The notes beneath the pieces are model-generated. The model did no database searches. It worked only from the letters and a program-made list of their open reading frames with translations, and was not told the origin of the DNA. From Haliotis cracherodii (taxonomy: Eukaryota), in contig NW_027266341.1 of assembly GCF_022045235.1 (NCBI RefSeq), positions 53,940,001-54,004,000 of the forward strand: a stretch of 64,000 nucleotides of DNA, read 5' to 3'. The translations under genes were made by a program, and so were the position numbers. Shown here piece by piece: positions 6,001 through 53,241 of the stretch (the first letter of the stretch is position 1; every line of letters starts with the position of its first letter).

Positions 6001-7026
6001 CGTGGGTAAATAGTGGTCACTACCTCTACAGCTGTTGAAATATAATGATTATTTTTACTATTTATGACTCCTACTGGTCACACTTCCCATTATCATATCA
6101 AAGAAACATCCCTGAGTGTTTTCCAATATCAATTAAACGGGAGACGAGCACTGGTCGCGGAAAGGGACATCTACAGACTTTTCATATTGCTTGGATATAG
6201 CGCGTGGGTAAATAGTGGTCACTACCTCCACAGATGTTGTAATATATATATTAGTTTTACTATGCATGACCCCTACTGGTCACTCTACACATTATTATAT
6301 AAAAAACATCCCTGTGTGTTTTCCAATATCAATTAAACGGGAGACGAACACTGGTCGCGGAAAGGGACATCTACAGACTTTTCATATTGCTTGGATATAG
6401 TGCGTGGGTAAATAGTGGTCACTACCTCCACAGATGTTGTAATATATATATTAGTTTTACTATGCATGACCCCTACTAGTCACTCTACACATTATTATAT
6501 AAAAGAAACATCCCTGTGTGTTTTCCAATATCAATTAAACGGGAGAAGAACACTGGTCGCGGAAAGGGACATCTACAGACTTTTCATATTGCTTGCATAT
6601 AGTGCGTGGGTAAATAGTGGTCACTACCTCTACAGCTGTTGTAATATATTTATCATTTTTACTATGCATGACTCCTACTGGTCAGTATACACATTATCAT
6701 ATCAAAGAAACATCCCTGTGTGTTTTCCAATATCAATTAAACGGGAGACGAACACTGGTCGCGGAAAGGGACATCTACAGACTTTTCATATTTCTTGGAT
6801 ATAGCGCGTGGGTAAATAGTGGTCACTACCTCTACAGCTGTTGAAATATAATGATAATTTCTACTATTTATGACTCCTACTGGTCAGTATACACATTATC
6901 ATATCAAAGAAACATCCCTATGTGTTTTCCAATATCAATTAAACGGGAGACGAACACTGGTCGCGGAAAGGGACAACTACAGACTTTTCATATTGCTTGG
7001 ATATAGTGCGTGGGTAAATAGTGGTC
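1..7026 (+). repeat. ~202-bp satellite DNA, forward arm (~35 monomers, extends past the window start), with higher-order repeats
   Basis: The monomer ...GACTCCTACTGGTCAC...AAACGGGAGACGAACACTGGTCGCGGAAAGGGACATCTACAGACTTTTCATATTGCTTGGATATAGCGCGTGGGTAAATAGTGGTCACTACC... recurs every 200-203 bp. The same variant monomer recurs at 223, 2439, 4454 and 5662 (spacings 2216, 2015, 1208). Confidence 0.97.
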
Positions 7027-15848: not shown

Positions 15849-16094
15849 AGGATAGAATAGGTCTTCAGCAACCCATGCTTGCCATAAAAGGCAACTATGC
15901 TTGTCATAAGAGGCGACTAACAGCATTGGGTGGTCAGTCTTGCTGACTAGGTTGATGCATGTCATCATTTCCAATTGTGTGGATCGATGCTCATGATTTC
16001 AATCACTGGATTGTCAGGTTCAGACTCGATTATTTCCAGACTGCTGTCATATAGCTGGAATATTGCTGAGTGCGGTGTTAAAAAACAAACAAAC
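15849..16094 (+). mobile_element. Interspersed SINE-like repeat, family A
   Basis: TAGAATAGGTCTTCAGCAACCCATGCTTG...ATAGCTGGAATATTGCTGAGTGCGG...(AAAC)n tail; about ten related copies in this window. Confidence 0.85.
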
Positions 16095-16907
16095 TAATTG
16101 TATGGTACAGGAGGTTATTTATTAAATACACTTGTGAAGTGTGCTTCATTGGTATTCCAGATCAGAACAGGTCCCCAGTACTTCACACTTATACATGTTG
16201 CAAGAGATCACTAAACTTGGGATGAGCTCTGTGACTTAATTAATTGGTTTTATCTGGTGAACTATTTGATCGTCATTCTAGAAGAAAACATAGAACATTA
16301 TATATAACAACTTCTGAGGGTTTTTTTCATTTATAAATGTTTTCATGTACATTCTTTCCCTGTTATCAAGCTGAAGTAATAACGGTGTGAGAATCAACAT
16401 GGAAACATTGCTAAATGCATTAAACAAGTAGTTGTTATCCACAACCTTGTATGTTTTCATATCTGGTCAAGGCTTGATTTCTCACCATGATACAGCTGAA
16501 ATATTGCAGACTGTCACATTACACATCATTCAATTTGAAGTTCATCTCTCTGTCTCTGTTAGTCCTGCCTCACCCTGGTTATGTTTCTGGGTTTCTCAGC
16601 ACCATACCCGTGCTCGTGGGTTTCACCAAAGCGTTCAACATCTGAGACCTGCACCACTTCGGGCTTTCCTCCCACATTAAGCTGACAGGCTGCGATATAA
16701 CTGGAATACTGTTAAAAGCGGTGTTAAACTAAAGTCACTCACTCTCTCTGTTTTCTTACCACATTAATCAACCTAAAGCTCATTTCACATTCCCTACACC
16801 TTGTACATGAGTTTCTAACTAGATCCCATGATAAAGTACTCTGTAATGTCTGCCCCTGCCCTGATGGTTTCTTCTCAGAAAGTATAAGATATAGTGTCAG
16901 TTTACTC

Positions 16908-18398: not shown

Positions 18399-18936
18399 AT
18401 TGGTTTCTAACCACATATTGGGAATGAGACCACTCTTGAACCTTGTCATTGATGACATAAGAGTAGAATCATGACCAGGAATTTCTGAAGTGGCTGAATA
18501 CACTTTTTCGTATTTCTTTGATTTAATGATGGTGCACGCGAACTTCTCCCTGGGCCAATGGGAAAGTACACCCTTAAATAAAAGAATGGTTTGTAGCCTA
18601 TGTACAGTAATGGCGGCCATTAAAAAAAGACAATAATTGGCTGTGGAGTGTTTTCCTTCGCCATGCCAGAATCTGCTTATCGTGGGGTTTGAATCGCGCT
18701 TTCGAAATTATTAACCCTTTGTTTGATAGGACCATGCTTAAGCTTGTAGAATGGTAAACATCGACGTAAATTGTCCCACATTAAACAGACGATGTGAAAA
18801 TACTTGCACTCACTCACTCACTCACCGTCAAAGAGGTTTCATTTCAGGACTGATACATTTTGGCGACCTCTCTCTGTCGCTGTCATTTCCATTACTCCCA
18901 CCCCATGAATCTCACCGATCCCTTACCAATAATATA

Positions 18937-19180
18937 TGTTTAGTTGTTGTTTAACGCCGCACTCAGCAATAGTCCAGCTATATGACACGGCTGTCTGTAA
19001 ATAATCGCGTCTGGACCAGGCAATCCAGTGATTGACATCATGAGCATCGATTCTCGCTATTGGGATACAATGACATGCATCAACCAAGTCCGTGAGTCTG
19101 ACCACCCGATCCCGTTAGTCGCCTGTTACAGCAAGCGTAGGTTGCTGAAGACCTGTTCTCTACCTGGATCTTCACGGGTC
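18937..19180 (-). mobile_element. SINE family A, near full length
   Basis: TTGTTTAACGCCGCACTCAGCAATA...GATCTTCACGGGTC. Confidence 0.85.
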
Positions 19181-20180
19181 CTATAATAAATGGCCCAGTC
19201 CCTATTTCATCATTTTAGGTCACCGACTTGCTCGTTGATAGATTTTCTCTTTAAGTTAGACAAAGGAATAATTGCTGAATCCTACTTTCATTATCAGTGA
19301 TATGACCGCTATCCCCGTTTTACTTTGTCGAATGAAACAATTTAGGTACTCTGAAGGCCAGTAGAATTTAAGATTTTAGGGGGTTCTTATATAGATTCCA
19401 TACGGTATCGATATTCGGGGTAGCAAATATGTGAGGTTAACGTTTACCATTGATGATCCGTATCAAAGTGAATGCAATTCACGTGCACCATGTTCCGAGT
19501 TATAGCGAACGAAAAACACCAAAACAATTTTTTTCAAACTCCAAACTGATGTTTTGGCCTACCTTGTTTCTTTTTGTGTTGTTATTTTTTTCTGTTGAAT
19601 TTTCAACTCATATCTTCGAAGTTGATAAAGTTAAGATTTTAACTTGAAATTTCAACGTATTCTCGTGTCATGGAAGTTCGATCACTTCCGAAAAGTCGCT
19701 GAATATTCTTAGTGATATTCATATAATCTATTTTTCAAATAGCTTACCTCTAAACTTGTTTATTTATGTCAAACATTTCCGAAATCCAGGTATTTCCACT
19801 GAAATTGACATATTGGCGGCATGGCCGCCCTCTCACTGTCAACAGAAGTGACCAAGAAAAGTATGTATCTTGAAATGTCAACTTAACATTTTGAAATTTC
19901 AGCTTCGTGTTTTGAAATTTCAAGAAAAAACAAGAAGACAAAACAAATGACTCTTAAAGGCGTCCATACGTTTAGCCTGGGGGTTGTGTTCGACCATAAT
20001 AAACCACACGCCGGAAGCTGGCGATGACGCCTCGTTCTGAATCCTCGAACTCCGTAACGTAGTTACCGTTGCCGGTACCGACGTCCCCTTCTGTTTCCAA
20101 CAGAAAAACGATCGCTTTTGCTCCGCTAATACCCACGTTTCGCTCACTGCTGTATCTTTCCAAGTGTGTCTTCTTCCAAG

Positions 20181-21165
20181 ATGAATACAAGGCTTCACAT
20201 TCAAGGTATTTGAGATCACAATTATTCCCATTAACAATATCAAGACGTTAAATTAGACCTGTAATTAGACGTTGTTAGGCAGCAGTATCGGGACTGAAGA
20301 TGGCGGCCGCCATTTGCAATATTGTCTAACTGAACATTTTAGCTTGTAAACTTGACATGGGGTGCTTAGATGAAACCTGTTCGTGCATTATAGTGTCAGA
20401 CGATGTAGTACAGATGTAAGACAACATGTATTACGTGAAAAGCAGCTGTTTGGCCCATGTTATTGGTTAAATTTCGTCTCGCAGCACAGCCTGTATCCCT
20501 ACATACACTTGAACTTCGAGGTGTCAAAGGGCCGAGGTCGAGTGACATATTGTAGCTGTCAGAGCTCGAAACTTGTGACATTTTAAACGTAGTCGTTGCC
20601 GTACATTTAACCTAGCCTATCTTTTGTTTTCTTTTTCAGCTCGGGAGGACATAATTCGCTATTATGGCACTCCTGCGGCTGTGAGTTTGTGGCCGTCTCA
20701 GGATAAGGAGTCCGACTGTGTATGTAGTTTTACATGCCCATCCTATAAATTCTTCCGTCTAGTATAGCTGATTTGTTGCACATTAAGTCTGCCCAGTCCC
20801 TATAATAAAGTGTGATTCGTTTTCTTTGCAAAATTATCCCGTATTTCTGTCTGACTTGACTTCCTTTGTCCCTCCCTCCACCCCTCGATGTGTAGCGTTC
20901 CCTGGCTGTGTCCCCTTCCCGTTGTCCCGACCCCCTGAGCGTCTTCACTCCGTTCTGGGCCCGCCCTGTCTACGGTGAGACGCTCCCCGCCCCCGTCACC
21001 ATCAACCACGCCGCTTACTATCCTGCCCCAAGTGACGACGATGACAGTGACTACTGGGTGTACGAGGACGACGACGACCACAGCTTTGTGGATGACAGAG
21101 AGATTCATCCCCTTAGAAAGGCGCTGACGAGAGCGGCTGCCTTCTTTAGGAAGATCTTCTCTTAG
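20181..21165 (+). CDS. Unrecognised 3-exon gene, copy 1 (111 aa); exons 20181-20205, 20640-20680, 20896-21165
   Basis: CAAG-ATG start; AAG|GTATTT...TTTTCTTTTTCAG; GCT|GTGAGT...pyrimidine tract-TGTAG. Phases 1 and 0 join into one ORF: MNTRLHIQAREDIIRYYGTPAARSLAVSPSRCPDPLSVFTPFWARPVYGETLPAPVTINHAAYYPAPSDDDDSDYWVYEDDDDHSFVDDREIHPLRKALTRAAAFFRKIFS*. Exons are nearly invariant between copies while intron 1 is diverged. Confidence 0.72.
20297..20315. promoter_or_regulatory. Palindromic double YY1-like site in intron 1 (repeated in copies 3-9)
   Basis: AAGATGGCGGCCGCCATTT is two back-to-back YY1 consensus sites. An ETS-like CCGGAAG lies upstream at 20011-20017. Confidence 0.55.
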
Positions 21166-21219
21166 ACTCCTTATCCTTTTAATGTCTGAATGTTTGCAAG
21201 TGGGTGAATGAATGAGCAG

Positions 21220-21536
21220 GTGTATGTATGTATGTATGTGTGCGTTTGTGTGAGAGTAAACATAAGATTGGATGAACATGCATGTGTGTGTATGTATGTG
21301 TGTGTGTGAGAGAGACTGAATGAATATGTATGTTTGTGTGAGAGTAAATGAAAGATTGAATTGGCATGTCTGTCTGTCTGTTTGCATGTATGTGTGTGTG
21401 TTTGTGTTTGAGTGTGAGAGAGTGAATGGGCATGTGTGTATAATGTGTGTATGTATGTTTGTATGTGTGAGAGGGAGAGTGTATGTATGTTAGAGATGAG
21501 AGTTAGAGTGAATGAACGAGCATACATGTATGTGTG

Positions 21537-21577
<41 letters not shown>
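21220..21577. repeat. Compound microsatellite (TATG)n/(TG)n/(TCTG)n/(GA)n, present 3' of every gene copy
   Basis: Seen directly. Equivalent blocks at ~26699-27219, 30251-30829, 33866-34416, 37450-37985, 41140-41630, 44790-45254, 48273-48842 and 51863-52465. Confidence 0.95.
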
Positions 21578-21579
<2 letters not shown>

Positions 21580-22754
21580 ACCATTCCATATACCCGCTCT
21601 TAGTGTATTTTTGGCGTATTTTTAGGCTCACAGTTTTGGCCCAACCTTCAGTTTCCTTTCGGCAAACCTATTGGCTTATTATCATGGCACAAGACCATAT
21701 TTTCTATACAATTTTGGCCCGGTTTTTTTTATCTCCCTTGAGGCATATTACTTTCGACTTTCGGTCATCTTAATAAATGTTTCTGTAATGTATACACAAG
21801 TTGTTTGTTTTCTCTACAGTGTTTCTTCCTTACAGCTTATAATATGTGGGCGACAGCGGCATGGCAATTTAGGCATCTGGCCAAATCCGAAGGCTTCTGA
21901 ACATGAGACATAAATTCATATTGATATTGTTAAAACGCAAAATTTGTCCATATATGGCTTTGCAGCTGTGTCCTTATTTTATGATCTGCACTTCACAGAA
22001 GATTTCTGAATAGGTGTTGTTACGTTAAGATTAGACACTTCTAAATCTTTATGTGGCGGCAGTTGTGACACAGAGGACACCTCACTTGGACACGTTGTTG
22101 TCTGGGGATATTTTATATTTCAATATAATAGCTAATCGGTTCTAATGTAACAATAATTTGGGCTTCCTTTAAAAGGAGTGCGAATCGAGAATTGCCCTCC
22201 TTCTCTAAAACACAAGTGTTGCCACATGGGATATATTACGAGCACTTCACCCAACTAATAGCAATAGTCGGATAAGGGATTGAGAGTGATCTCCCTTCAC
22301 TCTCCTCAGTCTTGGATTTCACCCGTCTTGAGCAACATTATGAACACACAGAAAAGCTGCTTCCAGGGGTCGACTTCAGTGGTTATATTGTACACCAGCT
22401 GATCATACTGGTCCTGGCCAGTACATAAATAATACCTTTTGCACTCATTTTAGCCATTGGTGTGAACATGTCTGTAGTCAACAACTTTAAGTGTAAGGAG
22501 GAAAAAACGCAAGCAACCTGTTATCGCCGAGGACCAATGATTGCCAACTCCCCGTTATGATGCGCACGTGATCGCATCTCGTTTAACTATTGCTCGGTTT
22601 CATTGGAAGAAAGAAATATTTATCCAAAAATGATGAACAAAACTTACTCCTGTGAAGAAATATTAAAAAACAACAACCATATAATCACCTTGCTCAAATA
22701 CAACTTAAGAAGAGACACTCACTCACAACACGATGATGCACATTCAGTTCTGTC

Positions 22755-22932
22755 ATAGCTTACTATCTGTCTGTCAAAATTCCCAAATTACAATTCTAAA
22801 ACCTATTTGAGCTATTTTCCCCCAAAATGCATTACTCTGAAAATATCGTGAAATTCATAGCTTAATTACTATCCGTCTGTCAAATTTCCCAAATTACGAT
22901 TCTAAAACCTATTGGAGCTATTTTTCCAAAAA
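22755..22932 (+). repeat. Local tandem duplication, ~100-bp period, 2 copies
   Basis: CATAGCTTA...CTGTCAAA(A/T)TTCCCAAATTAC(A/G)ATTCTAAAACCTATT(T/G)GAGCTATTTT occurs twice. Confidence 0.8.
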
Positions 22933-23975
22933 CGCTTAACCCTTTATATGTCCCGAAATTCAGAGTACATAGTGTTGAGGATAAACACAAGTAAATCGAA
23001 TTTTCGGAATATTGGTGGACGTCAGTTTGCAGACGACAAATTGATAAAAGCATTTTTCTTATTAACTGTAATGAATATAAACAATGAGTGCGATACCAGA
23101 GAAAATAGATTACGTAATTTGTGTAACTGAAGCAGTGTGTCTGATCACATTCTGTTTTTTTTATGATGGCGATAACTAGTTTATTTGGTCGACGGAAATA
23201 TCTTTTCCCACTGTTTTGATTCCCTGTTGTCGCGTTATAACAGAAATCTACTGATTTTTTTTCCACAGAAAGAAATACGCACATTTGCTCATAGTTTCCC
23301 ACAAGTTAAAATTATTGGCACAGATAACTTTGTACATAAAATATTTCAAAAATAACATGCCGAGGACAAGGGTAACATCAAGTACCATCTTTCAACGTCA
23401 TATGGTATGACGCGGCCCGGGATCGAACCACCGACCGCCAGCTCTCGCGGCAGACGCTCTGTCAACTAGACCATGGAAGCCATAGAGCTTTCGAAGATAT
23501 AAAATTGTTGTATATTTTTTAAAAAGTGGGCGCGCGAGTTCATACTCCACCTGTCTTCAAACTTATGTTTATTCAATGACATCTTTCAACATGTGTGTTA
23601 TCATTGCATGTAAATCAATCTTATGCTTAAATGAGCCGTCACAATGTAAATTGTGAATGACAGTTTGTTGGTTGACATTTGAAATTTTCAGAAATTGAAT
23701 TTGACCTAAACCCATTGATGCTGAGTGAGTGGCCCTTGATTATTTTGAATTTAACATTTCTGTTGGTTATGTCCAACATTACACATGCCGTCTCTGTTCA
23801 TTGTATTTGATTAATATGGGTCAACTTGACATGTCTTTCGTGAAAGTATTTGAGTTGTCGGGAACAAAACACGGACGAACAGTTTGAATATCTTAGAAAT
23901 GGCAGTGGAATAGTCCAAGATATCACATTGCCTTCTTTTACAGACCGAGGTAAAGGTGGCTCAATGGCCTGAGGC

Positions 23976-24110
23976 AAGTTCGGATCCAACTTTTTTTTAT
24001 AATGGAGGGGTCCAATAACAAAATCCTGTCTCAGAGAGGGGTGTGGTTGGTTTGTTTTTTGTTGTCAAAGCAGGAGGGGAGATCTGGATCTCGCACCTTG
24101 ATCCGCCAAT
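23976..24110. mobile_element. Short MITE-like insertion with CGGATCC...GATCCGCC ends
   Basis: Absent from the paralogous site at ~54570; ends form a degenerate inverted repeat. Confidence 0.55.
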
Positions 24111-24383
24111 GGAAGGCGCCGCGATTCGCTGTGCATGCAAAGTTGCGTCCCTTTGACGTGCCAGAAACCAATGATTGTGTGTTCGAATCTCCAATTTACC
24201 CTGGTTGTGTTTCTAGGTTGTCAGCTCCATCTACATCACTTAAGACTTTTCTCTCTTAATAATTAAGCTGACACACTGTGTGATATAACAGAAATAATGT
24301 TCAAAGCGGCGTTGAACCCAGCTCACTCACTCACTAGCTCACAGACTGAGAATGGGGTTGTTCCTGTGTTTCATATGATTGAC

Positions 24384-24555
24384 GGGGCGGTCGGGTAGCC
24401 TAGTGGTTGAAGCGTTCACTCGTCAGGCGTACGCCGAATAATCAGGTTCGATTCCCGACATGGGTACAATGCGTGAAGCCCATTTCTGGTGTCCCCCGCC
24501 GGTATATTGCTGGAATATTGCTAAAAGCGGTGTAAAACCATACTCACTCACTCAC
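24384..24555 (+). mobile_element. Full-length tRNA-derived SINE, family B
   Basis: A-box TAGCCTAGTGG, B-box GGTTCGATTCC, (CTCA)n tail, target-site duplication TCATATGATTGAC / TCATATGGTTGAC. Confidence 0.88.
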
Positions 24556-24660
24556 TCATATGGTTGACTGTGTTTCGTCATACCCCGACGGTGTAGATCG
24601 GTGCTCATGTCACTGGTGTGTCTGGACCAGACTTGATTATTTACAGGTCCACGTGATATA

Positions 24661-37986: not shown

Positions 37987-39976
37987 ACCATTCCATATAC
38001 CCGCTCTTAGCGTATTTTTGGCGTATTTTTAGGCTCACTGTTTTGGCCCGACCTTCAGTTTCCTTTCGGCAAACCTCTTGGTTTATTAGCATGGCACAAG
38101 ACCATACTTTCTATACAATTTTGGCCCGTTTTTGGATCTCCCTTGAGGCATATTACTTTCGACTTTCGGTCATCTGAATAAATGTTTCTGTAATGTATAC
38201 ACAAGTCGTCTGTTTTCTCTACAGTGTTTCTTCCTTACAGCTAATAATATATGGGCGACAGCAGCATCGCAATATTGGCCAAATCCTCAAGATTTCCGAA
38301 CATGTGACATAAATTCATATGGATATTGTTAAAAAGTGAATGCTGCCTCTATATTGCTGTGCTGCTGTGTCCCAATTTCATGATCTGCACTTAGCAGAAG
38401 ATTTCTAAATAGGTGGGGTTACCTTAAGATCAGACACTTCTAAATGTTTATGTGGCGACAATTGTGACACGGGATATTCTCTGAGGACAGCTCTCTGATA
38501 CTTTGTTATCTGGAATAAATTTTATATTCCAATATAATAGCTAATCGTTTCTAATGTAACAATAATCGTGGCTTCCTTTTAAAGGAGTGCGAATCGAGAA
38601 TTGCCTTTCTTCTCTAAAACACAAGTGTCGCCACATGGGATATATTACGAGCACTTCACCCAACTAATAGCAGTAGTCGGACAAGGGGTTGAGAGTGATC
38701 TCCCTTCGCCTCAGTCAATATTGGATTCCACTCGTCTCATCACCTCACTGCTTGTCTTTTGGCCCGTGGTCTTCAGAAATTGCAGAGGGCATGCTTTTAT
38801 ACATAGGCCGAGGCCAGGCGCAAGTAGAAAGCCTATATTGATACCTACTCGTATGCAAGAGTAGATTAATATATATATATGACGTAATATTCGTATCTGG
38901 CATTCTACAAAAATACCTAAATGATACAAGGGGTCTGAATTCTACCCCTGTACGTCCACATCAAGGTTTCCAAAATGGGACGGTCAATAGGATTTCTCTG
39001 ACTGTGATTGTGTGGGTGGCTAGGATTTTTTCAGAAAAAAAATATATTGTCTCCAAAGTTGATTGAAAACTAATTAGGCTTCCATATGTTGGACAAAAAG
39101 AACATGTCGGCCACCAAAAATACGTTGTTGCAAGGTGGGTTTTTGAAAAATGTTTTATTTAGGCTCATTGTTTATAACTGATTTTGCATTTGCAGCTGAA
39201 AAATATCTAGTCTCCATACAAAATCCAACGTCGCCCACTCCCCCTTCCAAAGGAACATGAAATGGTCGGCCCCTCAGGCCTAGTGTAGTAAAAACCAATA
39301 TGCTTGTCATTTATCTTTCTCTCCTATTAGCTATTTTCTGTGGTCATCGTGTTTCCAGATTAGAAATCAAACCAAATAAGAACTGTCGCTGCACACGTTG
39401 GAAAATACCAGTACCATTTAACTTTTATTTTATCCCTGTAGGATAGGGAATAATTCCCAAATCCCACATGGATTATCAGAGATGTGCATTCTTACTAGCC
39501 TGCTAGCCCGTGTCAGTTAGTCGAATGTAAAAGGTATTGTGAAGGTTAGTATAATAGAGGGTCGTTATATGGTATCGCTATTCGGCCTAGCAAACGTTTA
39601 AGGTTAATGTCCATATCAAAGTGAACAAAATTCACCCTGTTTCGAGTAATGGAGGCACGAAAAACACCTAGTTTCACCTGCACATTTTTTTCAAACTCTG
39701 AACTGATGTAGGCAACGTTTCAGTTGTAAGATACAACTTAATCCCGGTGTTCAGACGAAATAAACCCGGCAGTTTTCACCCTTGGCAATGCCATTAGGCT
39801 TTACCACGCCGGAAGCTGGCGATGAGCCTCGTTCTGACTCCTCGAACTCCGTAACGTAGTTACCGTTGCCGTTATCGACGTCCCTTCTGTTTTCAACAGA
39901 AAAACGATCGCTTTTGCTCCGCTGACCTCTACGTTTCGCTCACTGCTGTATCATTCCAAGTGTGTCTTCTTCCAAG

Positions 39977-40961
39977 ATGAATACAAGGCTTCACATTCAA
40001 GGTATTTAAGATCACAATTATTCCCCTTAACAGTATTAACATGCTAAATTAGACGTGAAATTGGTCGTTGTTAGGCAGCAGTATCGGGACTGAAGATGGC
40101 GGCCGCCATTTGCAATTGTCATAACTGAAAATGTTAGATTGTAAACTTGACATGTGGTTCTCAGATGAAACCTGTTCGTACATTATAGCGTCGGGCGATG
40201 TTGTACAGATGTAAGATAACCCGTTTTCCGTGAAAGGGAGCTGTTTGGCCCATTTTATTGGTTAAATGTCGTCTTGCAGCACAGCCTGTAACCCTACATA
40301 CACTTGGACTTCGAGGTGTCAAAGGGCCGAGGTCGAGTGTCATACTGTAGCTGTCAGAAGTCATGAATTGTGATTTTTTGAACGTAGCCGTCGGCGTACA
40401 TTTAACTGAGGCTAGCTTTCGTTTTTCTTTTTCAGCTCGGGAGGACATAATTCGCTATTATGGCACTCCTGCGGCTGTGAGTTTGTGGCCGTCTCAGGAT
40501 GAGGAGTCCGACTGTGTATGTAGTTTTACTTGCCCACCCTATAAGTTCTTCCGTCTAGTATAGCTGATTTGTTGCACATTAAGTCTGCCCAGTCCCTATA
40601 ATAAAGTGTGATTCGTTTTCTATGCAAAAGTATCCCGTATTTCTGTCTGACTTGACTTCCTTTGTCCCTCCCTCCACCCCTCGATGTGTAGCGTTCCCTG
40701 GCTGTGTCCCCTTCCCGTTGTCCCGACCCCCTGAGCGTCTTCACTCCGTTCTGGGCCCGCCCTGTCTACGGTGAGACGCTCCCCGCCCCTGTCACCATCA
40801 ACCACGCCGCTTACTATCCTGCCCCAAGTGACGACGATGACAGTGACTACTGGGTGTACGAGGACGACGACGACCACAGCTTTGTGGATGACAGAGAGAT
40901 TCATCCCCTTAGAAAGGCGCTGACGAGAGCGGCTGCCTTCTTTAGGAAGATCTTCTCTTAG
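39977..40961 (+). CDS. Unrecognised 3-exon gene, copy 6; exons 39977-40001, 40436-40476, 40692-40961
   Basis: Same structure; splice sites intact. Confidence 0.72.
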
Positions 40962-40999
40962 ACTCCTTATCCTTTTAATGTCTGAATGTGTGCAAGTGA

Positions 41000-41136
41000 N
41001 NNNNNNNNNNNNNNNNNNNNNNNNNNNNNNNNNNNNNNNNNNNNNNNNNNNNNNNNNNNNNNNNNNNNNNNNNNNNNNNNNNNNNNNNNNNNNNNNNNNN
41101 NNNNNNNNNNNNNNNNNNNNNNNNNNNNNNNNNNNN
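41000..41136. other. Assembly gap (N run) replacing the (TATG)n tract of copy 6
   Basis: 137 N between GCAAGTGA and AATATAAG. Confidence 0.99.
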
Positions 41137-41547
41137 AATATAAGTTTGAATGAACATGCATGTGTGTGTATGTATATGTGTGTGAGAAAGAGAGACTGAA
41201 TGAATATGTATGTTTGTGTGTGTGTGTAATGTGTGCGTGTGTGTGAGAGTAAATGAAAGATTGAATTGGCATGTCTGTCTGTTTCTGTCTGTATGCATGT
41301 ATGTGTGTGTATTTGTGTGTGAGTGTGTGTGTGTATTGTGTGAGTGTGTGTGAGAGTAAATGAAAGATTGAATTGGCATGTCTGTCTGTCTGTCTGTATG
41401 CATGTATGTGTGTGTATTTGCGTGTGAGTGTGAGAGAGTGAATGAGCATGTATGCATAATAATGTGTGTATGTATGTTTGTATGTATGAGAGGGAGAGTG
41501 TATGTATGTTAGAGGTGAGAGTTAGAGTAAATGAACGAGCATACATG

Positions 41548-41630
<83 letters not shown>

Positions 41631-43622
41631 CTACCATTCCATATACCCGCTCTTAGCGTATTTTTGGCGTATTTTTAGGCTCACTGTTTTGGCCCGACCT
41701 TCAGTTTCCTTTCGGCAAACCTCTTGGTTTATTAGCATGGCACAAGACCATACTTTCTATACAATTTTGGCCCGTTTTTGGATCTCCCTTGAGGCATATT
41801 ACTTTCGACTTTCGGTCATCTGAATAAATGTTTCTGTAATGTATACACAAGTCGTCTGTTTTCTCTACAGTGTTTCTTCCTTACAGCTAATAATATATGG
41901 GCGACAGCAGCATCGCAATATTGGCCAAATCCTCAAGATTTCCGAACATGTGACATAAATTCATATGGATATTGTTAAAAAGTGAATGCTGCCTCTATAT
42001 TGCTGTGCTGCTGTGTCCCAGTTTCATGATCTGCACTTAGCAGAAGATTTCTAAATAGGTGGGGTTACCTTAAGATCAGACACTTCTAAATGTTTATGTG
42101 GCGACAATTGTGACACGGGATATTCTCTGAGGACAGCTCTCTGATACTTTGTTATCTGGAATAAATTTTATATTCCAATATAATAGCTAATCGTTTCTAA
42201 TGTAACAATAATCGTGGCTTCCTTTTAAAGGAGTGCGAATCGAGAATTGCCTTTCTTCTCTAAAACACAAGTGTCGCCACATGGGATATATTACGAGCAC
42301 TTCACCCAACTAATAGCAGTAGTCGGACAAGGGGTTGAGAGTGATCTCCCTTCGCCTCAGTCAATATTGGATTCCACTCGTCTCATCACCTCACTGCTTG
42401 TCTTTTGGCCCGTGGTCTTCAGAAATTGCAGAGGGCATGCTTTTATACATAGGCCGAGGCCAGGCGCAAGTAGAAAGCCTATATTGATACCTACTCGAAT
42501 GCAAGAGTAGATTAATATATATATATGACGTAATATTCGTATCTGGCATTCTACAAAAATACCTAAATGATACAAGGGGTCTGAATTCTACCCCTGTACG
42601 TCCACATCAAGGTTTCCAAAATGGGACGGTCAATAGGATTTCTGTGACTGTGAGTGTGTGGGTGGCTAGGATTTTTTCAGAAAAAAAATATATTGTCTCC
42701 AAAGTTGATTGAAAACTAATTAGGCTTCCATATGTTGGACAAAAAGAACATGTCGGCCACCAAAAATACGTTGTTGCAAGGTGGGTTTTTGAAAAATGTT
42801 TTATTTAGGCTCATTGTTTATAACTGATTTTGCATTTGCAGCTGAAAAATATCTAGTCTCCATACAAAATCCAACGTCGCCCACTCCCCCTTCCAAAGGA
42901 ACATGAAATGGTCGGCCCCTCAGGCCTAGTGTAGTAAAAACCAATATGCTTGTCATTTATCTTTCTCTCCTATTAGCTATTTTCTGTGGTCATCGTGTTT
43001 CCAGATTAGAAATCAAACCAAATAAGAACTGTCGCTGCACACGTTGGAAAATACCAGTACCATTTAACTTTTATTTTATCCCTGTAGGATAGGGACTAAT
43101 TCCCAAATCCCACATGGATTATCAGAGATGTGCATTCTTACTAGCCTGCTAGCCCGTGTCAGTTTGTCGAATGTAAAAGGTATTGTGAAGGTTAGTATAA
43201 TAGAGGGTCGTTATATGGTATCGCTATTCTGCCTAGCAAACGTTTAAGGTTAATGTCCATATCAAAGTGAACAAAATTCACCCTGTTTCGAGTAATGGAG
43301 GCACGAAAAACACCTAGTTTCACCTGCACATTTTTTTCAAACTCTGAACTGATGTAGGCAACGTTTCAGTTGTAAGATACAACTTAATCCCGGTGTTCAG
43401 ACGAAATAAACCCGGCAGTTTTCACCCTTGGCAATGCCATTAGGCTTTACCACGCCGGAAGCTGGCGATGAGCCTCGTTCTGACTCCTCGAACTCCGTAA
43501 CGTAGTTACCGTTGCCGTTATCGACGTCCCTTCTGTTTTCAACAGAAAAACGATCGCTTTTGCTCCGCTGACCTCTACGTTTCGCTCACTGCTGTATCAT
43601 TCCAAGTGTGTCTTCTTCCAAG

Positions 43623-44607
43623 ATGAATACAAGGCTTCACATTCAAGGTATTTAAGATCACAATTATTCCACTTAACAGTATTAACATGCTAAATTAGAC
43701 GTGAAACTGGTCGTTGTTAGGCAGCAGTATCGGGACTGAAGATGGCGGCCGCCATTTGCAATTGTCATAACTGAAAATGTTAGATTGTAAACTTGACATG
43801 TGGTTCTCAGATGAAACCTGTTCGTACATTATAGTGTCGGGCGATGTTGTACAGATGTAAGATAACCCGTTTTCCGTGAAAGGGAGCTGTTTGGCCCATT
43901 TTATTGGTTAAATGTCGTCTTGCAGCACAGCCTGTAACCCTACATACACTTGGACTTCGAGGTGTCAAAGGGCCGAGGTCGAGTGTCATACTGTAGCTGT
44001 CAGAAGTCATGAATTGTGATTTTTTGAACGTAGCCGTCGGCGTACATTTAACTGAGGCTAGCTTTCGTTTTTCTTTTTCAGCTCGGGAGGACATAATTCG
44101 CTATTATGGCACTCCTGCGGCTGTGAGTTTGTGGCCGTCTCAGGATGAGGAGTCCGACTGTGTATGTAGTTTTACATGCCCACCCTATAAGTTCTTCCGT
44201 CTAGTATAGCTGATTTGTTGCACATTAAGTCTGCCCAGTCCCTATAACAAAGTGTGATTCGTTTTCTATGCAAAAGTATCCCGTATTTCTGTCTGACTTG
44301 ACTTCCTTTGTCCCTCCCTCCACCCCTCGATGTGTAGCGTTCCCTGGCTGTGTCCCCTTCCCGTTGTCCCGACCCCCTGAGCGTCTTCGCTCCGTTCTGG
44401 GCCCGCCCTGTCTACGGTGAGACGCTCCCCGCCCCTGTCACCATCAACCACGCCGCTTACTATCCTGCCCCAAGTGACGACGATGACAGTGACTACTGGG
44501 TGTACGAGGACGACGACGACCACAGCTTTGTGGATGACAGAGAGATTCATCCCCTTAGAAAGGCGCTGACGAGAGCGGCTGCCTTCTTTAGGAAGATCTT
44601 CTCTTAG
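43623..44607 (+). CDS. Unrecognised 3-exon gene, copy 7 (T->A variant); exons 43623-43647, 44082-44122, 44338-44607
   Basis: Same structure; VFTP->VFAP. Confidence 0.72.
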
Positions 44608-44645
44608 ACTCCTTATCCTTTTAATGTCTGAATGTGTGCAAGTGA

Positions 44646-44786
44646 NNNNNNNNNNNNNNNNNNNNNNNNNNNNNNNNNNNNNNNNNNNNNNNNNNNNNNN
44701 NNNNNNNNNNNNNNNNNNNNNNNNNNNNNNNNNNNNNNNNNNNNNNNNNNNNNNNNNNNNNNNNNNNNNNNNNNNNNNNNNNNNNN
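44646..44786. other. Assembly gap (N run) replacing the (TATG)n tract of copy 7
   Basis: 141 N at the same unit position as the first gap. Confidence 0.99.
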
Positions 44787-45187
44787 AATATAAGTTTGAA
44801 TGAACATGCATGTGTGTGTATGTATATGTGTGTGAGAAAGAGAGACTGAATGAATATGTATGTTTGTGTGTGTGTGTAATGTGTGCGTGTGTGTGAGAGT
44901 AAATGAAAGATTGAATTGGCATGTTTGTCTGTTTCTGTCTGTATGCATGTATGTGTGTGTATTTGTGTGAGTGTGTGTGTGTGTATTGTGTGAGTGTGTG
45001 TGAGAGTAAATGAAAGATTGAATTGGCATGTCTGTCTGTCTGTCTGTATGCATGTATGTGTGTGTATTTGCGTGTGAGTGTGAGAGAGTGAATGAGCATG
45101 TATGCATAATAATGTGTGTATGTATGTTTGTATGTGTGAGAGGGAGAGTGTATGTATGTTAGAGGTGAGAGTTAGAGTAAATACATG

Positions 45188-45256
<69 letters not shown>

Positions 45257-47234
45257 ACCATTCCATATACCCGCTCTTAGCGTATTTTTGGCGTATTTTT
45301 AGGCTCACTGTTTTGGCCCGACCTTCAGTTTCCTTTCGGCAAACCTCTTGGTTTATTAGCATGGCACAAGACCATACTTTCTATACAATTTTGGCCCGTT
45401 TTTGGATCTCCCTTGAGGCATATTACTTTCGACTTTCGGTCATCTGAATAAATGTTTCTGTAATGTATACACAAGTCGTCTGTTTTCTCTACAGTGTTTC
45501 TTCCTTACAGCTAATAATATATGGGCGACAGCAGCATCGCAATATTGGCCAAATCCTCAAGATTTCCGAACATGTGACATAAATTCATATGGATATTGTT
45601 AAAAAGTGAATGCTGCCTCTATATTGCTGCGCTGCTGTGTCCCAATTTCATGATCTGCACTTAGCAGAAGATTTCTAAATAGGTGGGGTTACCTTAAGAT
45701 CCGACACTTCTAAATGTTTATGTGGCGACAATTGTGACACGGGATATTCTCTGAGGACAGCTCTCTGATACTTTGTTATCTGGAATAAATTTTATATTCC
45801 AATATAATAGCTAATCGTTTCTAATGTAACAATAATTGTGGCTTCCTTTTAAAGGAGTGCGAATCGAGAATTGCATTTCTTCTCTAAAACACAAGTGTCG
45901 CCGCATGGGATATATTACGAGCACTTCACCCAACTAATAGCAGTAGTCGGACAAGGGGTTGAGAGTGATCTCCCTTCGCCTCAGTCAATATTGGATTCCA
46001 CTCGTCTCATCACCTCACTGCTGGTCTTTTGGCCCGTGGTCTTCAGAAATTGCAGAGGGCATGCTTTTATACATAGGCCGAGGCCAGGCGCAAGTAGAAA
46101 GCCTATATTGACACCTACTCGTATGCAAGAGTAGATTAATATATATATATGACGTAATATTCGTATCTGGCATTCTACAAAAATACCTAAATGATACAAG
46201 GGGTCTGAATTCTACCCCTGTACGTCCACATCAAGGTTTCCAAAATGGGACGGTCAATAGGATTTCTCTGACTGTGAGTGTGTGGGTGGCTAGGATTTTT
46301 TCAGAAAAAAAATATATTGTCTCCAAAGTTGATTGAAAACTAATTAGGCTTCCATCTGTTGGACAAAAAGAACATGTCGGCCACCAAAAATACGTTGTTG
46401 CAAGGTGGGTTTTTGAAAAATGTTTTATTTAGGCTCATTGTTTATAACTGATTTTGCATTTGTAGCTGAAAAATATCTAGTCTCCATACAAAATCCAACG
46501 TCGCCCACTCCCCCTTCCAAAGGAACATGAAATGGTCGGCCCCTCAGGCCTAGTGTAGTAAAAGCCAATATGCTTGTCATTTATCTTGATTTCCTATTAG
46601 CTAATTTCTGTGGTCATCGTGTTTCCAGATTTGAAATCAAACCAAATAAGAACTGTGGAAAATACCAGTACCATTTAACTTTTATTTTATCCCTGTAGGC
46701 TAGGGAATAATTCCCAAATCCCACATGGATTATCAGAGATGTGCATTCTTACTAGCCTGCTAGCCCATGTCAGTTTGTCGAATGTAAAAGGTATTGTGAA
46801 GGTTAGTATAATAGAGGGTCGTTATATGGTATCGCTATTCGGCCTAGCAAACGTTTAAGGTTAATGTCCATATCAAAGTGAACAAAATTCACCCTGTTTC
46901 GAGTAATGGAGGCACGAAAAACACCTAGTTTCACCTGCACATTTTTTTCAAACTCTGAACTGATGTAGGCAACGTTTCAGTTGTAAGATACAACTTAATC
47001 CCGGTGTTCAGACGAAATAAACCCGGCAGTTTTCACCCTTGGCAATGCCATTAGGCTTTACCACGCCGGAAGCTGGCGATGAGCCTCGTTCTGACTCCTC
47101 GAACTCCGTAACGTAGTTACCGTTGCCGTTATCGACGTCCCTTCTGTTTTCAACAGAAAAAACGATCGCTTTTGCTCCGCTGACCTCTACGTTTCGCTCA
47201 CTGCTGTATCATTCCAAGTGTGTCTTCTTCCAAG

Positions 47235-48219
47235 ATGAATACAAGGCTTCACATTCAAGGTATTTAAGATCACAATTATTCCACTTAACAGTATTAACAT
47301 GCTAAATTAGACGTGAAATTGGTCGTTGTTAGGCAGCAGTATCGGGACTGAAGATGACGGCCGCCATTTGCAATTGTCATAACTGAAAATGTTAGATTGT
47401 AAACTTGACATGTGGTTCTCAGATGAAACCTGTTCGTACATTATAGTGTCGGGCGATGTTGTACAGATGTAAGATAACCCGTTTTCCGTGAAAGGGAGCT
47501 GTTTGGCCCATTTTATTGGTTAAATGTCGTCTTGCAGCACAGCCTGTAACCCTACATACACTTGGACTTCGAGGTGTCAAAGGGCCGAGGTCGAGTGGCA
47601 TACTGTAGCTGTCAGAAGTCATGAATTGTGATTTTTTGAACGTAGCCGTCGGCGTACATTTAACTGAGGCTAGCTTTCGTTTTTCTTTTTCAGCTCGGGA
47701 GGACATAATTCGCTATTATGGCACTCCTGCGGCTGTGAGTTTGTGGCCGTCTCAGGATGAGGAGTCCGACTGTGTATGTAGTTTTACATGCCCACCCTAT
47801 AAGTTCTTCCGTCTAGTATAGCTGATTTGTTGGACATTAAGTCTGCCCAGTCCCTATAATAAAGTGTGATTCGTTTTCTATGCAAAAGTATCCCGTATTT
47901 TTGTCTGACTTGACTTCCTTTGTCCCTCCCTCCACCCCTCGATGTGTAGCGTTCCCTGGCTGTGTCCCCTTCCCGTTGTCCCGACCCCCTGAGCGTCTTC
48001 ACTCCGTTCTGGGCCCGCCCTGTCTACGGTGAGACGCTCCCCGCCCCTGTCACCATCAACCACGCCGCTTACTATCCTGCCCCAAGTGACGACGATGACA
48101 GTGACTACTGGGTGTACGAGGACGACGACGACCACAGCTTTGTGGATGACAGAGAGATTCATCCCCTTAGAAAGGCGCTGACGAGAGCGGCTGCCTTCTT
48201 TAGGAAGATCTTCTCTTAG
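47235..48219 (+). CDS. Unrecognised 3-exon gene, copy 8; exons 47235-47259, 47694-47734, 47950-48219
   Basis: Same structure; splice sites intact; one half of the YY1-like palindrome is mutated (GATGACGG). Confidence 0.7.
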
Positions 48220-48278
48220 ACTCCTTATCCTTTTAATGTCTGAATGTGTGCAAGTGAGTGAATGAATGAGCATGTATG

Positions 48279-48309
<31 letters not shown>

Positions 48310-48753
48310 GTATGTGTGCGTTTGTGTGAGTGTAAATATAAGTTTGAATGAACATGCATGTGTGTGTATGTATATGTGTGTGAGAAAGAGAGACTGAATG
48401 AATATGTATGTTTGTGTGTGTGTGTAATGTGTGAGTGTGTGTGAGAGTAAATGAAAGATTGAATTGGCATGTCTGTCTGTTTCTGTCTGCATGCATGTAT
48501 GTGTGTGTATTTGTGTGTGAGTGAGTGTGTGTGTGTATTGTGTGAGTGTGTGTGAGAGTAAATGAAAGATTGAATTGGCATGTCTGTCTGTCTGTCTGTC
48601 TGTATGCATGTATGTGTGTGTATTTGCGTGTGAGTGTGAGAGAGTGAATGAGCATGTATGCATAATAATGTGTGTATGTATGTTTGTATGTGTGAGAGGG
48701 AGAGTGTATGTATGTTAGAGGTGAGAGTTAGAGTAAATGAACGAGCATACATG

Positions 48754-48845
<92 letters not shown>

Positions 48846-50823
48846 TACCATTCCATATACCCGCTCTTAGCGTATTTTGGCGTATTTTTAGGCTCACTGT
48901 TTTGGCCCGACCTTCAGTTTCCTTTCGGCAAACCTCTTGGTTTATTAGCATGGCACAAGACCATACTTTCTATACAATTTTGGCCCGTTTTTGGATCTCC
49001 CTTGAGGCATATTACTTTCGACTTTCGGTCATCTGAATAAATGTTTCTGTAATGTATACACAAGTCGTCTGTTTTCTCTACAGTGTTTCTTCCTTACAGC
49101 TAATAATATATGGGCGACAGCAGCATCGCAATATTGGCCAAATCCTCAAGATTTCCGAACATGTGACATAAATTCATATGGATATTGTTAAAAAGTGAAT
49201 GCTGCCTCTATATTGCTGCGCTGCTGTGTCCCAATTTCATGATCTGCACTTAGCAGAAGATTTCTAAATAGGTGGGGTTACCTTAAGATCCGACACTTCT
49301 AAATGTTTATGTGGCGACAATTGTGACACGGGATATTCTCTGAGGACAGCTCTCTGATACTTTGTTATCTGGAATAAATTTTATATTCCAATATAATAGC
49401 TAATCGTTTCTAATGTAACAATAATTGTGGCTTCCTTTTAAAGGAGTGCGAATCGAGAATTGCATTTCTTCTCTAAAACACAAGTGTCGCCGCATGGGAT
49501 ATATTACGAGCACTTCACCCAACTAATAGCAGTAGTCGGACAAGGGGTTGAGAGTGATCTCCCTTCGCCTCAGTCAATATTGGATTCCACTCGTCTCATC
49601 ACCTCACTGCTGGTCTTTTGGCCCGTGGTCTTCAGAAATTGCAGAGGGCATGCTTTTATACATAGGCCGAGGCCAGGCGCAAGTAGAAAGCCTATATTGA
49701 CACCTACTCGTATGCAAGAGTAGATTAATATATATATATGACGTAATATTCGTATCTGGCATTCTACAAAAATACCTAAATGATACAAGGGGTCTGAATT
49801 CTACCCCTGTACGTCCACATCAAGGTTTCCAAAATGGGACGGTCAATAGGATTTCTCTGACTGTGAGTGTGTGGGTGGCTAGGATTTTTTCAGAAAAAAA
49901 ATATATTGTCTCCAAAGTTGATTGAAAACTAATTAGGCTTCCATCTGTTGGACAAAAAGAACATGTCGGCCACCAAAAATACGTTGTTGCAAGGTGGGTT
50001 TTTGAAAAATGTTTTATTTAGGCTCATTGTTTATAACTGATTTTGCATTTGTAGCTGAAAAATATCTAGTCTCCATACAAAATCCAACGTCGCCCACTCC
50101 CCCTTCCAAAGGAACATGAAATGGTCGGCCCCTCAGGCCTAGTGTAGTAAAAGCCAATATGCTTGTCATTTATCTTGATTTCCTATTAGCTAATTTCTGT
50201 GGTCATCGTGTTTCCAGATTTGAAATCAAACCAAATAAGAACTGTGGAAAATACCAGTACCATTTAACTTTTATTTTATCCCTGTAGGCTAGGGAATAAT
50301 TCCCAAATCCCACATGGATTATCAGAGATGTGCATTCTTACTAGCCTGCTAGCCCATGTCAGTTTGTCGAATGTAAAAGGTATTGTGAAGGTTAGTATAA
50401 TAGAGGGTCGTTATATGGTATCGCTATTCGGCCTAGCAAACGTTTAAGGTTAATGTCCATATCAAAGTGAACAAAATTCACCCTGTTTCGAGTAATGGAG
50501 GCACGAAAAACACCTAGTTTCACCTGCACATTTTTTTCAAACTCTGAACTGATGTAGGCAACGTTTCAGTTGTAAGATACAACTTAATCCCGGTGTTCAG
50601 ACGAAATAAACCCGGCAGTTTTCACCCTTGGCAATGCCATTAGGCTTTACCAAGCCGGAAGCTGGCGATGAGCCTCGTTCTGACTCCTCGAACTCCGTAA
50701 CGTAGTTACCGTTGCCGTTATCGACGTCCCTTCTGTTTTCAACAGAAAAAACGATCGCTTTTGCTCCGCTGACCTCTACGTTTCGCTCACTGCTGTATCA
50801 TTCCAAGTGTGTCTTCTTCCAAG

Positions 50824-51808
50824 ATGAATACAAGGCTTCACATTCAAGGTATTTAAGATCACAATTATTCCACTTAACAGTATTAACATGCTAAATTAGA
50901 CGTGAAATTGGTCGTTGTTAGGCAGCAGTATCGGGACTGAAGATGGCGGCCGCCATTTGCAATTGTCATAACTGAAAATGTTAGATTGTAAACTTGACAT
51001 GTGGTTCTCAGATGAAACCTGTTCGTACATTATAGTGTCGGGCGATGTTGTACAGATGTAAGATAACCCGTTTTCCGTGAAAGGGAGCTGTTTGGCCCAT
51101 TTTATTGGTTAAATGTCGTCTTGCAGCACAGCCTGTAACCCTACATACACTTGGACTTCGAGGTGTCAAAGGGCCGAGGTCGAGTGGCATACTGTAGCTG
51201 TCAGAAGTCATGAATTGTGATTTTTTGAACGTAGCCGTCGGCGTACATTTAACTGAGGCTAGCTTTCGTTTTTCTTTTTCCGCTCGGGAGGACATAATTC
51301 GCTATTATGGCACTCCTGCGGCTGTGAGTTTGTGGCCGTCTCAGGATGAGGAGTCCGACTGTGTATGTAGTTTTACATGCCCACCCTATAAGTTCTTCCG
51401 TCTAGTATAGCTGATTTGTTGGACATTAAGTCTGCCCAGTCCCTATAATAAAGTGTGATTCGTTTTCTATGCAAAAGTATCCCGTATTTTTGTCTGACTT
51501 GACTTCCTTTGTCCCTCCCTCCACCCCTCGATGTGTAGCGTTCCCTGGCTGTGTCCCCTTCCCGTTGTCCCGACCCCCTGAGCGTCTTCACTCCGTTCTG
51601 GGCCCGCCCTGTCTACGGTGAGACGCTCCCCGCCCCTGTCACCATCAACCACGCCGCTTACTATCCTGCCCCAAGTGACGACGATGACAGTGACTACTGG
51701 GTGTACGAGGACGACGACGACCACAGCTTTGTGGATGACAGAGAGATTCATCCCCTTAGAAAGGCGCTGACGAGAGCGGCTGCCTTCTTTAGGAAGATCT
51801 TCTCTTAG
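50824..51808 (+). pseudogene. Gene copy 9: exon-2 acceptor mutated (CAG->CCG)
   Basis: TTTCTTTTTCCG|CTCGGG at 51271-51288 versus TTTTTCAG|CTCGGG in the other copies. Skipping the 41-nt exon would frameshift. A ~200-bp deletion follows the (GA)n tract. Confidence 0.6.
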
Positions 51809-52033
51809 ACTCCTTATCCTTTTAATGTCTGAATGTGTGCAAGTGAGTGAATGAATGAGCAGGTATGTATGTATGTATGTATGTATGTATGTATGTATGT
51901 ATGTATGTATGTATGTATGTATGTATGTATGTATGTATGTGTGCGTTTGTGTGAGAGTAAATATAAGTTTGAATGAACATGCATGTGTGTGTATGTATAT
52001 GTGTGTGAGAAAGAGAGACTGAATGAATATGTA

Positions 52034-52069
<36 letters not shown>

Positions 52070-52384
52070 GTGTGTGTGTGTGTGAGAGTAAATGAACGAT
52101 TAAATTGGCATGTCTGTCTGTCTGTCTGTATGCATGTATGTGTGTGTATTTGTGTGTGTGTGTGTGTATTGTGTGAGTGTGTGTGAGAGTAAATGAAAGA
52201 TTGAATTGGCATGTATGTCTGTCTGTCTGTCTGTATGCATGTATGTGTGTGTATTTGTGTGTGAGTGTGAGAGAGTGAATGAGCATGTATGTATATTAAT
52301 GTGTGTATGTATGTTTGTATGTGTGAGAGGGAGAGTGTATGTATGTTAGAGATGAGAGTTAGAGTGAATGAACGAGCATACATG

Positions 52385-52467
<83 letters not shown>

Positions 52468-53241
52468 ACCATACACAAGTCGTCTGTTTTCTCTACAGTG
52501 TTTCTTCCTTACAGCTAATAATAATTGGGCGACAGCAGCATCGCAATATTGGCCAAATCCTCAAGATTTCCGAACATGTGACATAAATTCATATGGATAT
52601 TGTTAAAAGTGAATGCTGCCTCTATATTGCTGTGCTGCTGTGTCCCAATTTCATGATCTGCACTTAGCAGAAGATTTCTAAATAGGTGGGGTTACCTTAA
52701 GATCCGACACTTCTAAATGTTTATGTGGCGACAATTGTGACACGGGATATTCTCTGAGGACAGCTCTCTGATACTTTGTTATCTGGAATAAATTTTATAT
52801 TCCAATATAATAGCTAATCGTTTCTAATGTAACAATAATTGTGGCTTCCTTTTAAAGGAGTGCGAATCGAGAATTGCCTTTCTTCTCTAAAACAGAAGTG
52901 TCGCCAAATGGGACCAGTAGTTTAGAAAATTGGAGTGGGCCAAAAATGGCCTTGATGGTTCCTTGCCCTTTTCTGAAAAAGTCCCAGCCTCGCACAACCG
53001 ATTTAATATGTAACCGATTTGTGTCTGAGATACTATCCGCAACGTTATTTTGAGCTCACTCACTCACCCACCTTGGCGTGCAGTTATTCATAACACAACT
53101 AATTTATTCATAAAAGATGTGACTTCTCAATTTTGGTGTAGTCATGTTGTTTAGATATACTGAACTGTTCAGTATAATTATGTCACCAAACGAGTTATTA
53201 GTTGTTCTGTTGTGATAGGTTTCCTTTTGTTATCCCCCATG

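Follow-up and report, generated by a model that had tools for sequence, protein, structure and literature searches.

Coding macrosatellites and ampliconic arrays, such as those of the D4Z4/DUX4 and RS447/USP17 type, are built from head-to-tail gene units of 3-5 kb, which are homogenised within arrays. Membrane-targeting sequences (MTS) of the MinD type are short, cationic, two-faced helices at the extreme C-terminus, without a transmembrane segment. In abalone, the small, acidic and disordered protein FITZAP/sp6 is described, in the available passages of the source, as a fast-evolving product of about 6 kDa with a signal peptide, an N-terminal poly-Asp stretch and two exons; its acidic tract and hydrophobic patch neutralise a cationic amphipathic partner, which sets a precedent for masking (PMC6952181). 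Finally, weak introns that stay in the transcript set the timing of protein production during mouse meiosis (PMC5392497), and C-rich tracts mark a class of regulated, alphaCP-dependent acceptors in mammals (PMC4797308; both sources in excerpt).

The window analysed here, a stretch of 64,000 nucleotides from Haliotis cracherodii, harbours from position 20007 to about 52900 nine units of ~3.6 kb that follow one another head-to-tail (Table 1). As in the coding macrosatellites, gene units of 3-5 kb are arranged head-to-tail and homogenised within arrays, and some arrays of the family form inverted pairs here, too. Unlike these systems, the abalone family comprises ~190 copies on at least eight contigs, falls into two old clades and encodes an orphan protein conserved in the genus. 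The protein is a small, acidic and disordered abalone protein like FITZAP/sp6, yet, in contrast to FITZAP as portrayed in the available passages, it carries its own cationic helix; an identity with FITZAP/sp6 was rejected, since the signal peptide, the N-terminal poly-Asp, the two-exon structure, the size of ~6 kDa and the rapid evolution are all missing. The helix resembles the MinD MTS type by pattern only: the abalone protein has no folded domain, a tract of net charge -12 precedes the helix, and there is no sequence relation. A weak-looking last intron with a C-rich tract, which is kept in contigs presumed to be RNA, may be compared with regulated intron retention (PMC5392497, PMC4797308), both precedents of which are mammalian.

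Table 1. Features of the first gene copy and of the further copies in the array; positions refer to the window.
Feature	Position	Strand	Support or scope
TATA-less conserved proximal promoter block	20011..20103	+	copies with full upstream stretch, n=63
Exon 1, coding part (ATG, 25 nt)	20181..20205	+	joint to exon 2 in 4/4 runs
Intron 1 (GT..AG, 434 nt), T-rich acceptor tract	20206..20639	+	joint spliced in runs X1-X4
Exon 2 (80 nt), residues 9-35	20640..20719	+	RefSeq model identical
Intron 2 (176 nt, phase 0), donor GTATGT, C-rich pyrimidine tract, TAG acceptor	20720..20895	+	
Exon 3, coding part, residues 36-124 and stop	20896..21165	+	dN/dS 0.21
Acidic/aromatic tract, residues 81-104 (S81-E104), net -12, 4 aromatic residues	21031..21102	+	dN/dS 0.05
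Cationic amphipathic C-terminal helix, residues 108-124 (L108-S124), net +5	21112..21162	+	
Likely 3' untranslated region, GT/GTAT/GA microsatellites, one AATAAA at 21772	21166..22328	+	
Copy 2: promoter remnant running into the middle of intron 1; exon 1 lost by deletion, exons 2 and 3 undamaged	25832..26644	+	
Copies 3-9: head-to-tail array, unit length 3.55-3.65 kb, similarity between units about 96-99%	29040..52913	+	

The initial annotation described the end of a predicted protein, where an acidic/aromatic tract is followed by a cationic amphipathic helix. Tract, helix, frame and stop are as claimed, apart from the isoleucine dropped from the I-H-P that sits between tract and helix; the stop codon TAG lies at 21163-21165. 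The segment 21031-21165 forms the end of exon 3 in a three-exon gene for 124 amino acids, the spliced product of which is letter-for-letter RefSeq XP_071087489.1 (“uncharacterized”, H. cracherodii). Family relatives in RefSeq amount to 26 and 13 near-identical sequences in three Haliotis species and include LOC125376035/LOC125372355 of H. rufescens and XP_067685017.1 of H. asinina; these “uncharacterized protein” entries are automatic models without an assigned function. RefSeq shows multiple copies in three species, so this assembly alone cannot have created the multi-copy state, although it may have distorted the exact copy number of ~190. The isoforms X1 of three members are modelled in RefSeq with 140-145 amino acids; they start within intron 1, and a more hydrophobic leader of 24-29 residues replaces residues 1-8. 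Another RefSeq model, XP_071118469.1 (655 amino acids), contains nine exon-3 repeats with most helices absent; here, automatic modelling has probably joined neighbouring array copies into one protein.

The splice sites are highly conserved. Intron 1 starts with GTATTT in 64/64 copies and ends with AG in 69 of 70 (replaced by CG in copy 9), and in runs X2 and X7 loose exon-1 letters precede exon 2. The donor GTATGT and the acceptor TAG|C of intron 2 are found in 70/70 copies, the length ranges from 166 to 340 nt, and the middle of the intron, together with the read-through peptide, varies freely. The donor GTGAGT at 20681, which underlies the obvious 111-residue model, was rejected, as it is present in 33 of 70 copies compared with all 70 for GTATGT at 20720. 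Since the exon-3 frame from 20896 lacks a methionine, it is translated only after splicing, i.e., as the last exon; the stop at 20893-20895 is the TAG of the splice acceptor. Exon 3 comprises a variable linker (residues 36-47), a conserved Pro/aromatic segment (48-80), the acidic tract and the helix, and contigs of runs X2, X6 and X12 cover 21586-22298 further downstream.

Three elements characterise the 63 promoters. The motif CCGGAAR (20011-20017) occurs in 60 copies (shuffled controls 0.04), a GTAAC-N3-GTTAC palindrome with an adjoining CCGTTG (20054-20071) in 59 copies and a CTGTTT-N2/3-AACAG palindrome (20091-20103) in 61 copies (shuffled controls 0 for both). By consensus, the first element would be ETS-like and the second would represent RFX/Myb-like half sites. 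A TATA box was found in one of the 63 promoters, and the heat-shock (HSE), ISRE and kB consensus in none.

The initial annotation missed the genomic context, i.e., the nine tandem copies in the window and the ~190 family copies. The ATG codons of copies 3-9 are located at 29212, 32827, 36411, 39977, 43623, 47235 and 50824, and acidic tract and helix are identical across all nine window copies. A 16-mer present in 66/70 copies has 190 exact matches in the genome (control 0), and the family members reside mostly in arrays of 3-5.3-kb units. The 70-copy sample, which is not the whole family, consists of the nine window copies and 61 copies from 28 loci chosen to span the genome matches. A search of the own genome with the protein produced 237 candidates, and the 150 that were scored all have a stop-free frame of 88-89 residues; both solitary copies examined (L029, L030) are broken. 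Protein identity between the two clades is 77%, and the window copies belong to clade A; for 13 H. asinina proteins, the identity is higher with clade B (88%) than with clade A (79%). No intron-2-less retrocopy was detected among 150 scored of 470 candidates. Transport by a mobile element was discarded, as the flanks of 40 loci share no long stretch beyond the unit and dispersed short repeats; moreover, no long coding frame was recognised beside the array upon inspection.

Inverted array pairs were observed on contigs C1 (34.88-34.90 Mb, +, and 35.28-35.31 Mb, -), C56 (32.67-32.69, -, and 32.73-32.75, +) and C78 (53.32-53.37, -, and 53.96-53.99, +), and recall ampliconic palindromes. The window itself begins with a satellite (1-11967) of 202-base units that are 88-91% alike, of which ~35 point one way and 24 the opposite way; the orientation flips at about 7022-7026. 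A SINE-looking repeat of ~250 bases with an A-rich end, 78-88% alike, occurs in both orientations at 15849-16098, 18931-19183, 55271-55517, 55837-56112, 58772-59031, 60019-60240 and 62691-62956, and also in L030.

Between the clades, dN/dS (Nei-Gojobori, 23 x 25 unique CDS, 48 in all, the pairs of which share history, such that averages are not independent counts) is 0.16 overall, and it is 0.14 within clades. Along the protein, residues 1-35 have a between-clade value of 0.08, the linker 36-47 reaches 0.92, and residues 48-80 come to 0.14. The acidic tract has 0.05 and residues 105-124 have 0.33; within the tail, the helix taken alone is conserved less well. The three groups have in common 29/35 of residues 1-35 and 13/20 positions of residues 105-124. 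Single-pair Fisher tests yielded p values of 1.4e-5, 2.2e-5 and 1.6e-7 for exon 3, and of 0.15, 0.09 and 0.035 for the helix alone; residues 23-35 are under purifying selection as well (Fisher p 0.024). For residues 48-124 the other frames give dN/dS of about 1.5-1.75; one antisense frame reaches 0.22 but has stops in 48/48 CDS. On this sequence evidence, exon 3 encodes a real protein under purifying selection in the spliced frame. Another antisense frame over exon 3 (20800-21489, - strand) recurs at the same place in each copy; it is stop-free in 48/48 CDS, but with a dN/dS of 1.46 it probably just mirrors the sense frame.

Relatives outside Haliotis were found in none of the cluster, profile, Pfam or short-protein searches. 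The search for distant homologues retrieved two clusters, both from Haliotis, and a profile run against 1.84 billion representatives yielded five matches, two of which belong to the abalone family (one being XP_071118469.1); the other three are repetitive proteins matched over short stretches. No shorter homologous protein was identified among 1146 candidates. Exon 3 matched no Pfam family at E<=10, and 21 family members produced only two single matches (E 0.14 and 0.24). The best match in the ESM Atlas (0.76) is unnamed, and a later search provided no usable match. A decayed SH3 domain, suggested by a spectrin SH3 match (E 0.27), was rejected: among 25 abalone SH3 domains (from 30 loci, 27 of them long enough, with two wrong-strand extractions dropped) the best score was 0.2 bits, 42-232 of 1000 shuffles were equally good, and hhalign assigned a probability of 1% and a score of 13.0, which 6/100 shuffles exceeded. 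Rfam matched positions 19000-33000 only twice, both times mir-297 far below the gathering score and on GTAT/TG repeats. No published description of the family was found in the open literature covered.

The claimed pattern of a clean two-faced helix with net charge +5 at the C-terminus was confirmed. With L108 as position 1, the hydrophobic positions are 1, 4, 5, 8, 11, 12, 15 and 16 (Ala also at 9 and 10), and R/K occupy 2, 3, 7, 13 and 14. The calculated hydrophobic moment of 0.599 (Fauchere-Pliska; rounded, 0.60) peaks at exactly 100 degrees and is matched by 0.5% of 20,000 shuffles; from six-frame translations outside the array, 1/810 null C-terminal 17-mers reaches this moment with a charge of at least +4. 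Moments of 0.575-0.75 and charges of +4 to +6 were found for 69/70 copies, one copy stopping at residue 118, and the H. asinina variants have moments of 0.62-0.68. Neither Pro nor Asp or Glu enters the helix in the copies compared, the changes are like for like on either face (L/V/F108, A/V115, F/W119 and I/V122; T/R/K113 and K/R121), and random changes of 4-6 residues preserve moment and charge in 2.6-8.6% of trials. By itself, the helix is an ordinary motif, and amphipathic helices of such type also bind proteins or nucleic acid.

The mostly disordered character proposed for the protein is supported by AlphaFold2 (21 sequences), which predicts coil except for a sole helix at residues 107-123; its confidence is low, with a mean pLDDT of 56 (about 70 in the helix) and a pTM of 0.17. 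A homodimer prediction scored 0.00, a value that carries no weight for or against a dimer. The N-terminus does not resemble a signal peptide by hydropathy (best Kyte-Doolittle 9-mer in residues 1-35, 0.8), in agreement with the initial annotation, and there is no transmembrane stretch (best Kyte-Doolittle 19-mer, 0.4). A large hydrophobic moment suits membrane binding according to the passages available from PMC6914677; the HeliQuest discrimination value of 2.2 comes from a formula absent from these passages and is given no weight here. In runs X1 and X2, contigs of a relative keep to the acidic tract and diverge at 21102, with an early stop about nine codons on; this relative is possibly a helix-less paralogue in other species.

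A loose resemblance to an FFAT motif, also noted at the outset, did not hold. In the best register, S-F-V-D/E-D-R-E after the acidic run, the upstream acidic tract, an aromatic residue at position 2 and an acid at position 4 are present (consensus as given in the available part of PMC8306308). However, position 5 must be small (Ala) for VAP to bind, since this residue is seated in a hydrophobic pocket, and a phosphomimetic there blocks binding, as stated in the excerpted text of PMC7705450; the majority residue of all three groups at this position is Asp, and the Glu at position 7 is deleted in 12/13 H. asinina proteins. The acidic tract contains no [WFY]-x-x-[LIV] core of an LIR/AIM (Atg8-binding) motif, and the W-P-S-L of clade B reads W-P-S-Q in the window clade.

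Transcript evidence was drawn from contigs of seven runs, labelled as seven organisms and seven studies; the contigs are presumed to be RNA, although none is recorded as such. The exon 2-exon 3 joint appears in 0/7 runs among the contig matches listed, with contigs in general dropping rare forms, giving no splicing ratios and being unable to show absence, and with DNA admixture being possible. One contig crosses the whole intron 2 in 5/7 runs (X1, X2, X6, X7 and X12); per tally, the donor is bridged unspliced in six runs (X3 and X4 included) and the acceptor in five. Paralogue contigs with other intron lengths likewise connect exons 2 and 3 through intervening letters (X4, X7, X12). The depth of intron-2 contigs resembles that of the spliced intron-1 joint (37.7/51.6, 54.3/50.9, 178/165 and 454/760), a weak hint, as contig depth cannot rank gene parts; intron 1 itself, with depths of 8, 6, 25 and about 61, stays well below the intron-2 contigs. 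The acceptor tract contains 60% C in intron 2 versus 16% in intron 1. If intron 2 is kept, translation of this copy would meet a stop at codon 51 and the product would have 50 residues; in other copies the product ends between residues 43 and 75 without a conserved end. Removal of intron 2 is suggested by conservation and by the RefSeq models, which splice it. The initial annotation had named a real transcript with another frame or last exon as an outcome that would refute it; this is partly borne out, as the contigs examined keep intron 2. A downstream alternative last exon was rejected, since no joint leads from exon 2 into 21166-23400 in four runs. One contig of run X2 (60 nt) with a depth of 72.7 branches off at the intron-2 donor and continues with letters absent from 19900-23400. 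The stretch 23326-23400, at the edge of the region compared and inside a segment repeated at 53969-54578, shows a very high contig depth in 4/4 runs and is probably a common transcribed repeat.

We tentatively favour the reading that this abalone-restricted family of ~190 copies encodes a disordered 124-residue protein, which may bind anionic membranes inside the cell through its helix, the tail being gated by the weak last intron. Many loci with one common TATA-less promoter would supply the transcripts, most of which would wait with intron 2 and yield a stub of 43-75 amino acids. In a particular tissue, at a particular stage or under stress, splicing at the C-rich acceptor would then let many loci make the complete protein simultaneously. 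The helix would fold on an anionic, cytosol-facing membrane, with the Leu/Ala/Phe/Trp face in the lipid and Arg/Lys on the head groups, and the -12 tract could fold back onto the +5 helix, thereby damping membrane binding. Together with the better-conserved aromatic motifs (residues 48-58 and 86-91), the tract may also recruit a partner, which would make the protein a tether or adaptor; the membrane-tethered adaptor suggested in the initial annotation is thereby still the best guess.

The strongest constraint lies on the acidic tract, and this would also fit a nuclear or chromatin factor, in which the acidic/aromatic tract acts in the manner of an activation domain or binds histones, while the basic helix contacts DNA, RNA or an acidic patch on a protein. 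An acid-plus-aromatic make-up is typical of activation domains, and the tract has it; furthermore, the protein is small, disordered and signal-less, and its macrosatellite-like units of 3-5 kb liken the family to other tandemly amplified, briefly expressed orphan genes. We nevertheless consider such a factor unlikely, given that the protein has neither a DNA-binding domain nor a Pfam family and that a hydrophobic face this clean, with Phe/Trp at the very C-terminus, exceeds the needs of nucleic-acid binding.

No less unlikely is a helix that docks onto a protein (as a calmodulin-type basic amphiphilic or a groove-binding element) and binds no lipid, which would render the protein a multivalent inhibitor or scaffold at high dose. 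Basic amphiphilic helices of disordered proteins often bind calmodulin, and the helix is of this kind; its Ala-rich core (A115-A117) and the H106-P107 cap are near-invariant. Yet, no IQ consensus is apparent by inspection, and 7/20 positions differ between the groups, mostly like for like per face, for which a physical property fits better than a fixed interface.

The notion of a self-neutralised lytic or antimicrobial peptide, put forward in the initial annotation, fared worse and is quite improbable. Here, proteolysis or cell rupture would free the peptide from the acidic segment, and the retained intron would act as a safety catch. With a charge of +5/+6 and a moment of 0.6-0.75, the cationic amphipathic helix is within the usual range of helical antimicrobial peptides, and the adjoining -12 tract, the very high copy number and the tail withheld in the contigs examined would suit such a role. 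In secreted antimicrobial precursors a dibasic processing site is expected between the acidic piece and the mature peptide; however, the junction D-R-E-I/V-H-P has none (R-E being absent in H. asinina), there is no signal peptide, and selection is purifying rather than diversifying, with near-identical copies. Moreover, 80 conserved upstream residues are unaccounted for, and the heat-shock, ISRE and kB consensus is absent from the 63 promoters. It is very unlikely that the function resides in the RNA with intron 2 retained or in the stub of ~50 residues, in which case exon 3 would be a remnant or seldom translated and its helix incidental: the exon 2-exon 3 joint missing from the contig matches listed in the seven runs and the best-conserved block at residues 1-35 speak for it, and exon 3 being under purifying selection in exactly the spliced frame (p 1e-5 to 2e-7) and stop-free in 150/150 matches, the stub ending variably without conservation and a short homologue being found in 0/1146 candidates speak against it.

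The favoured reading of a membrane-binding, splice-gated protein may be extended to an ampliconic, genus-wide effector specific for the germline or a stage, a version that we regard as unlikely. The ~190 loci, some of them in inverted array pairs, with their common Myb/RFX/ETS-type promoter would stockpile transcripts behind the C-rich intron, and a single splicing signal would release a burst of membrane-active helix, held in check by the acidic tract. If true, such an effector could serve in sperm or larval membrane remodelling or represent a selfish poison, and would have been kept intact in hundreds of copies through the entire history of Haliotis. New are the scale of the family and an intron that seemingly withholds the tail. 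The ~190 constrained copies and the identity of 79-88% between distant Haliotis species, along with the absence elsewhere, imply that the protein is likely needed at high dose, and the scale of the family and its possible splice gate bear on farmed as well as endangered abalone species.
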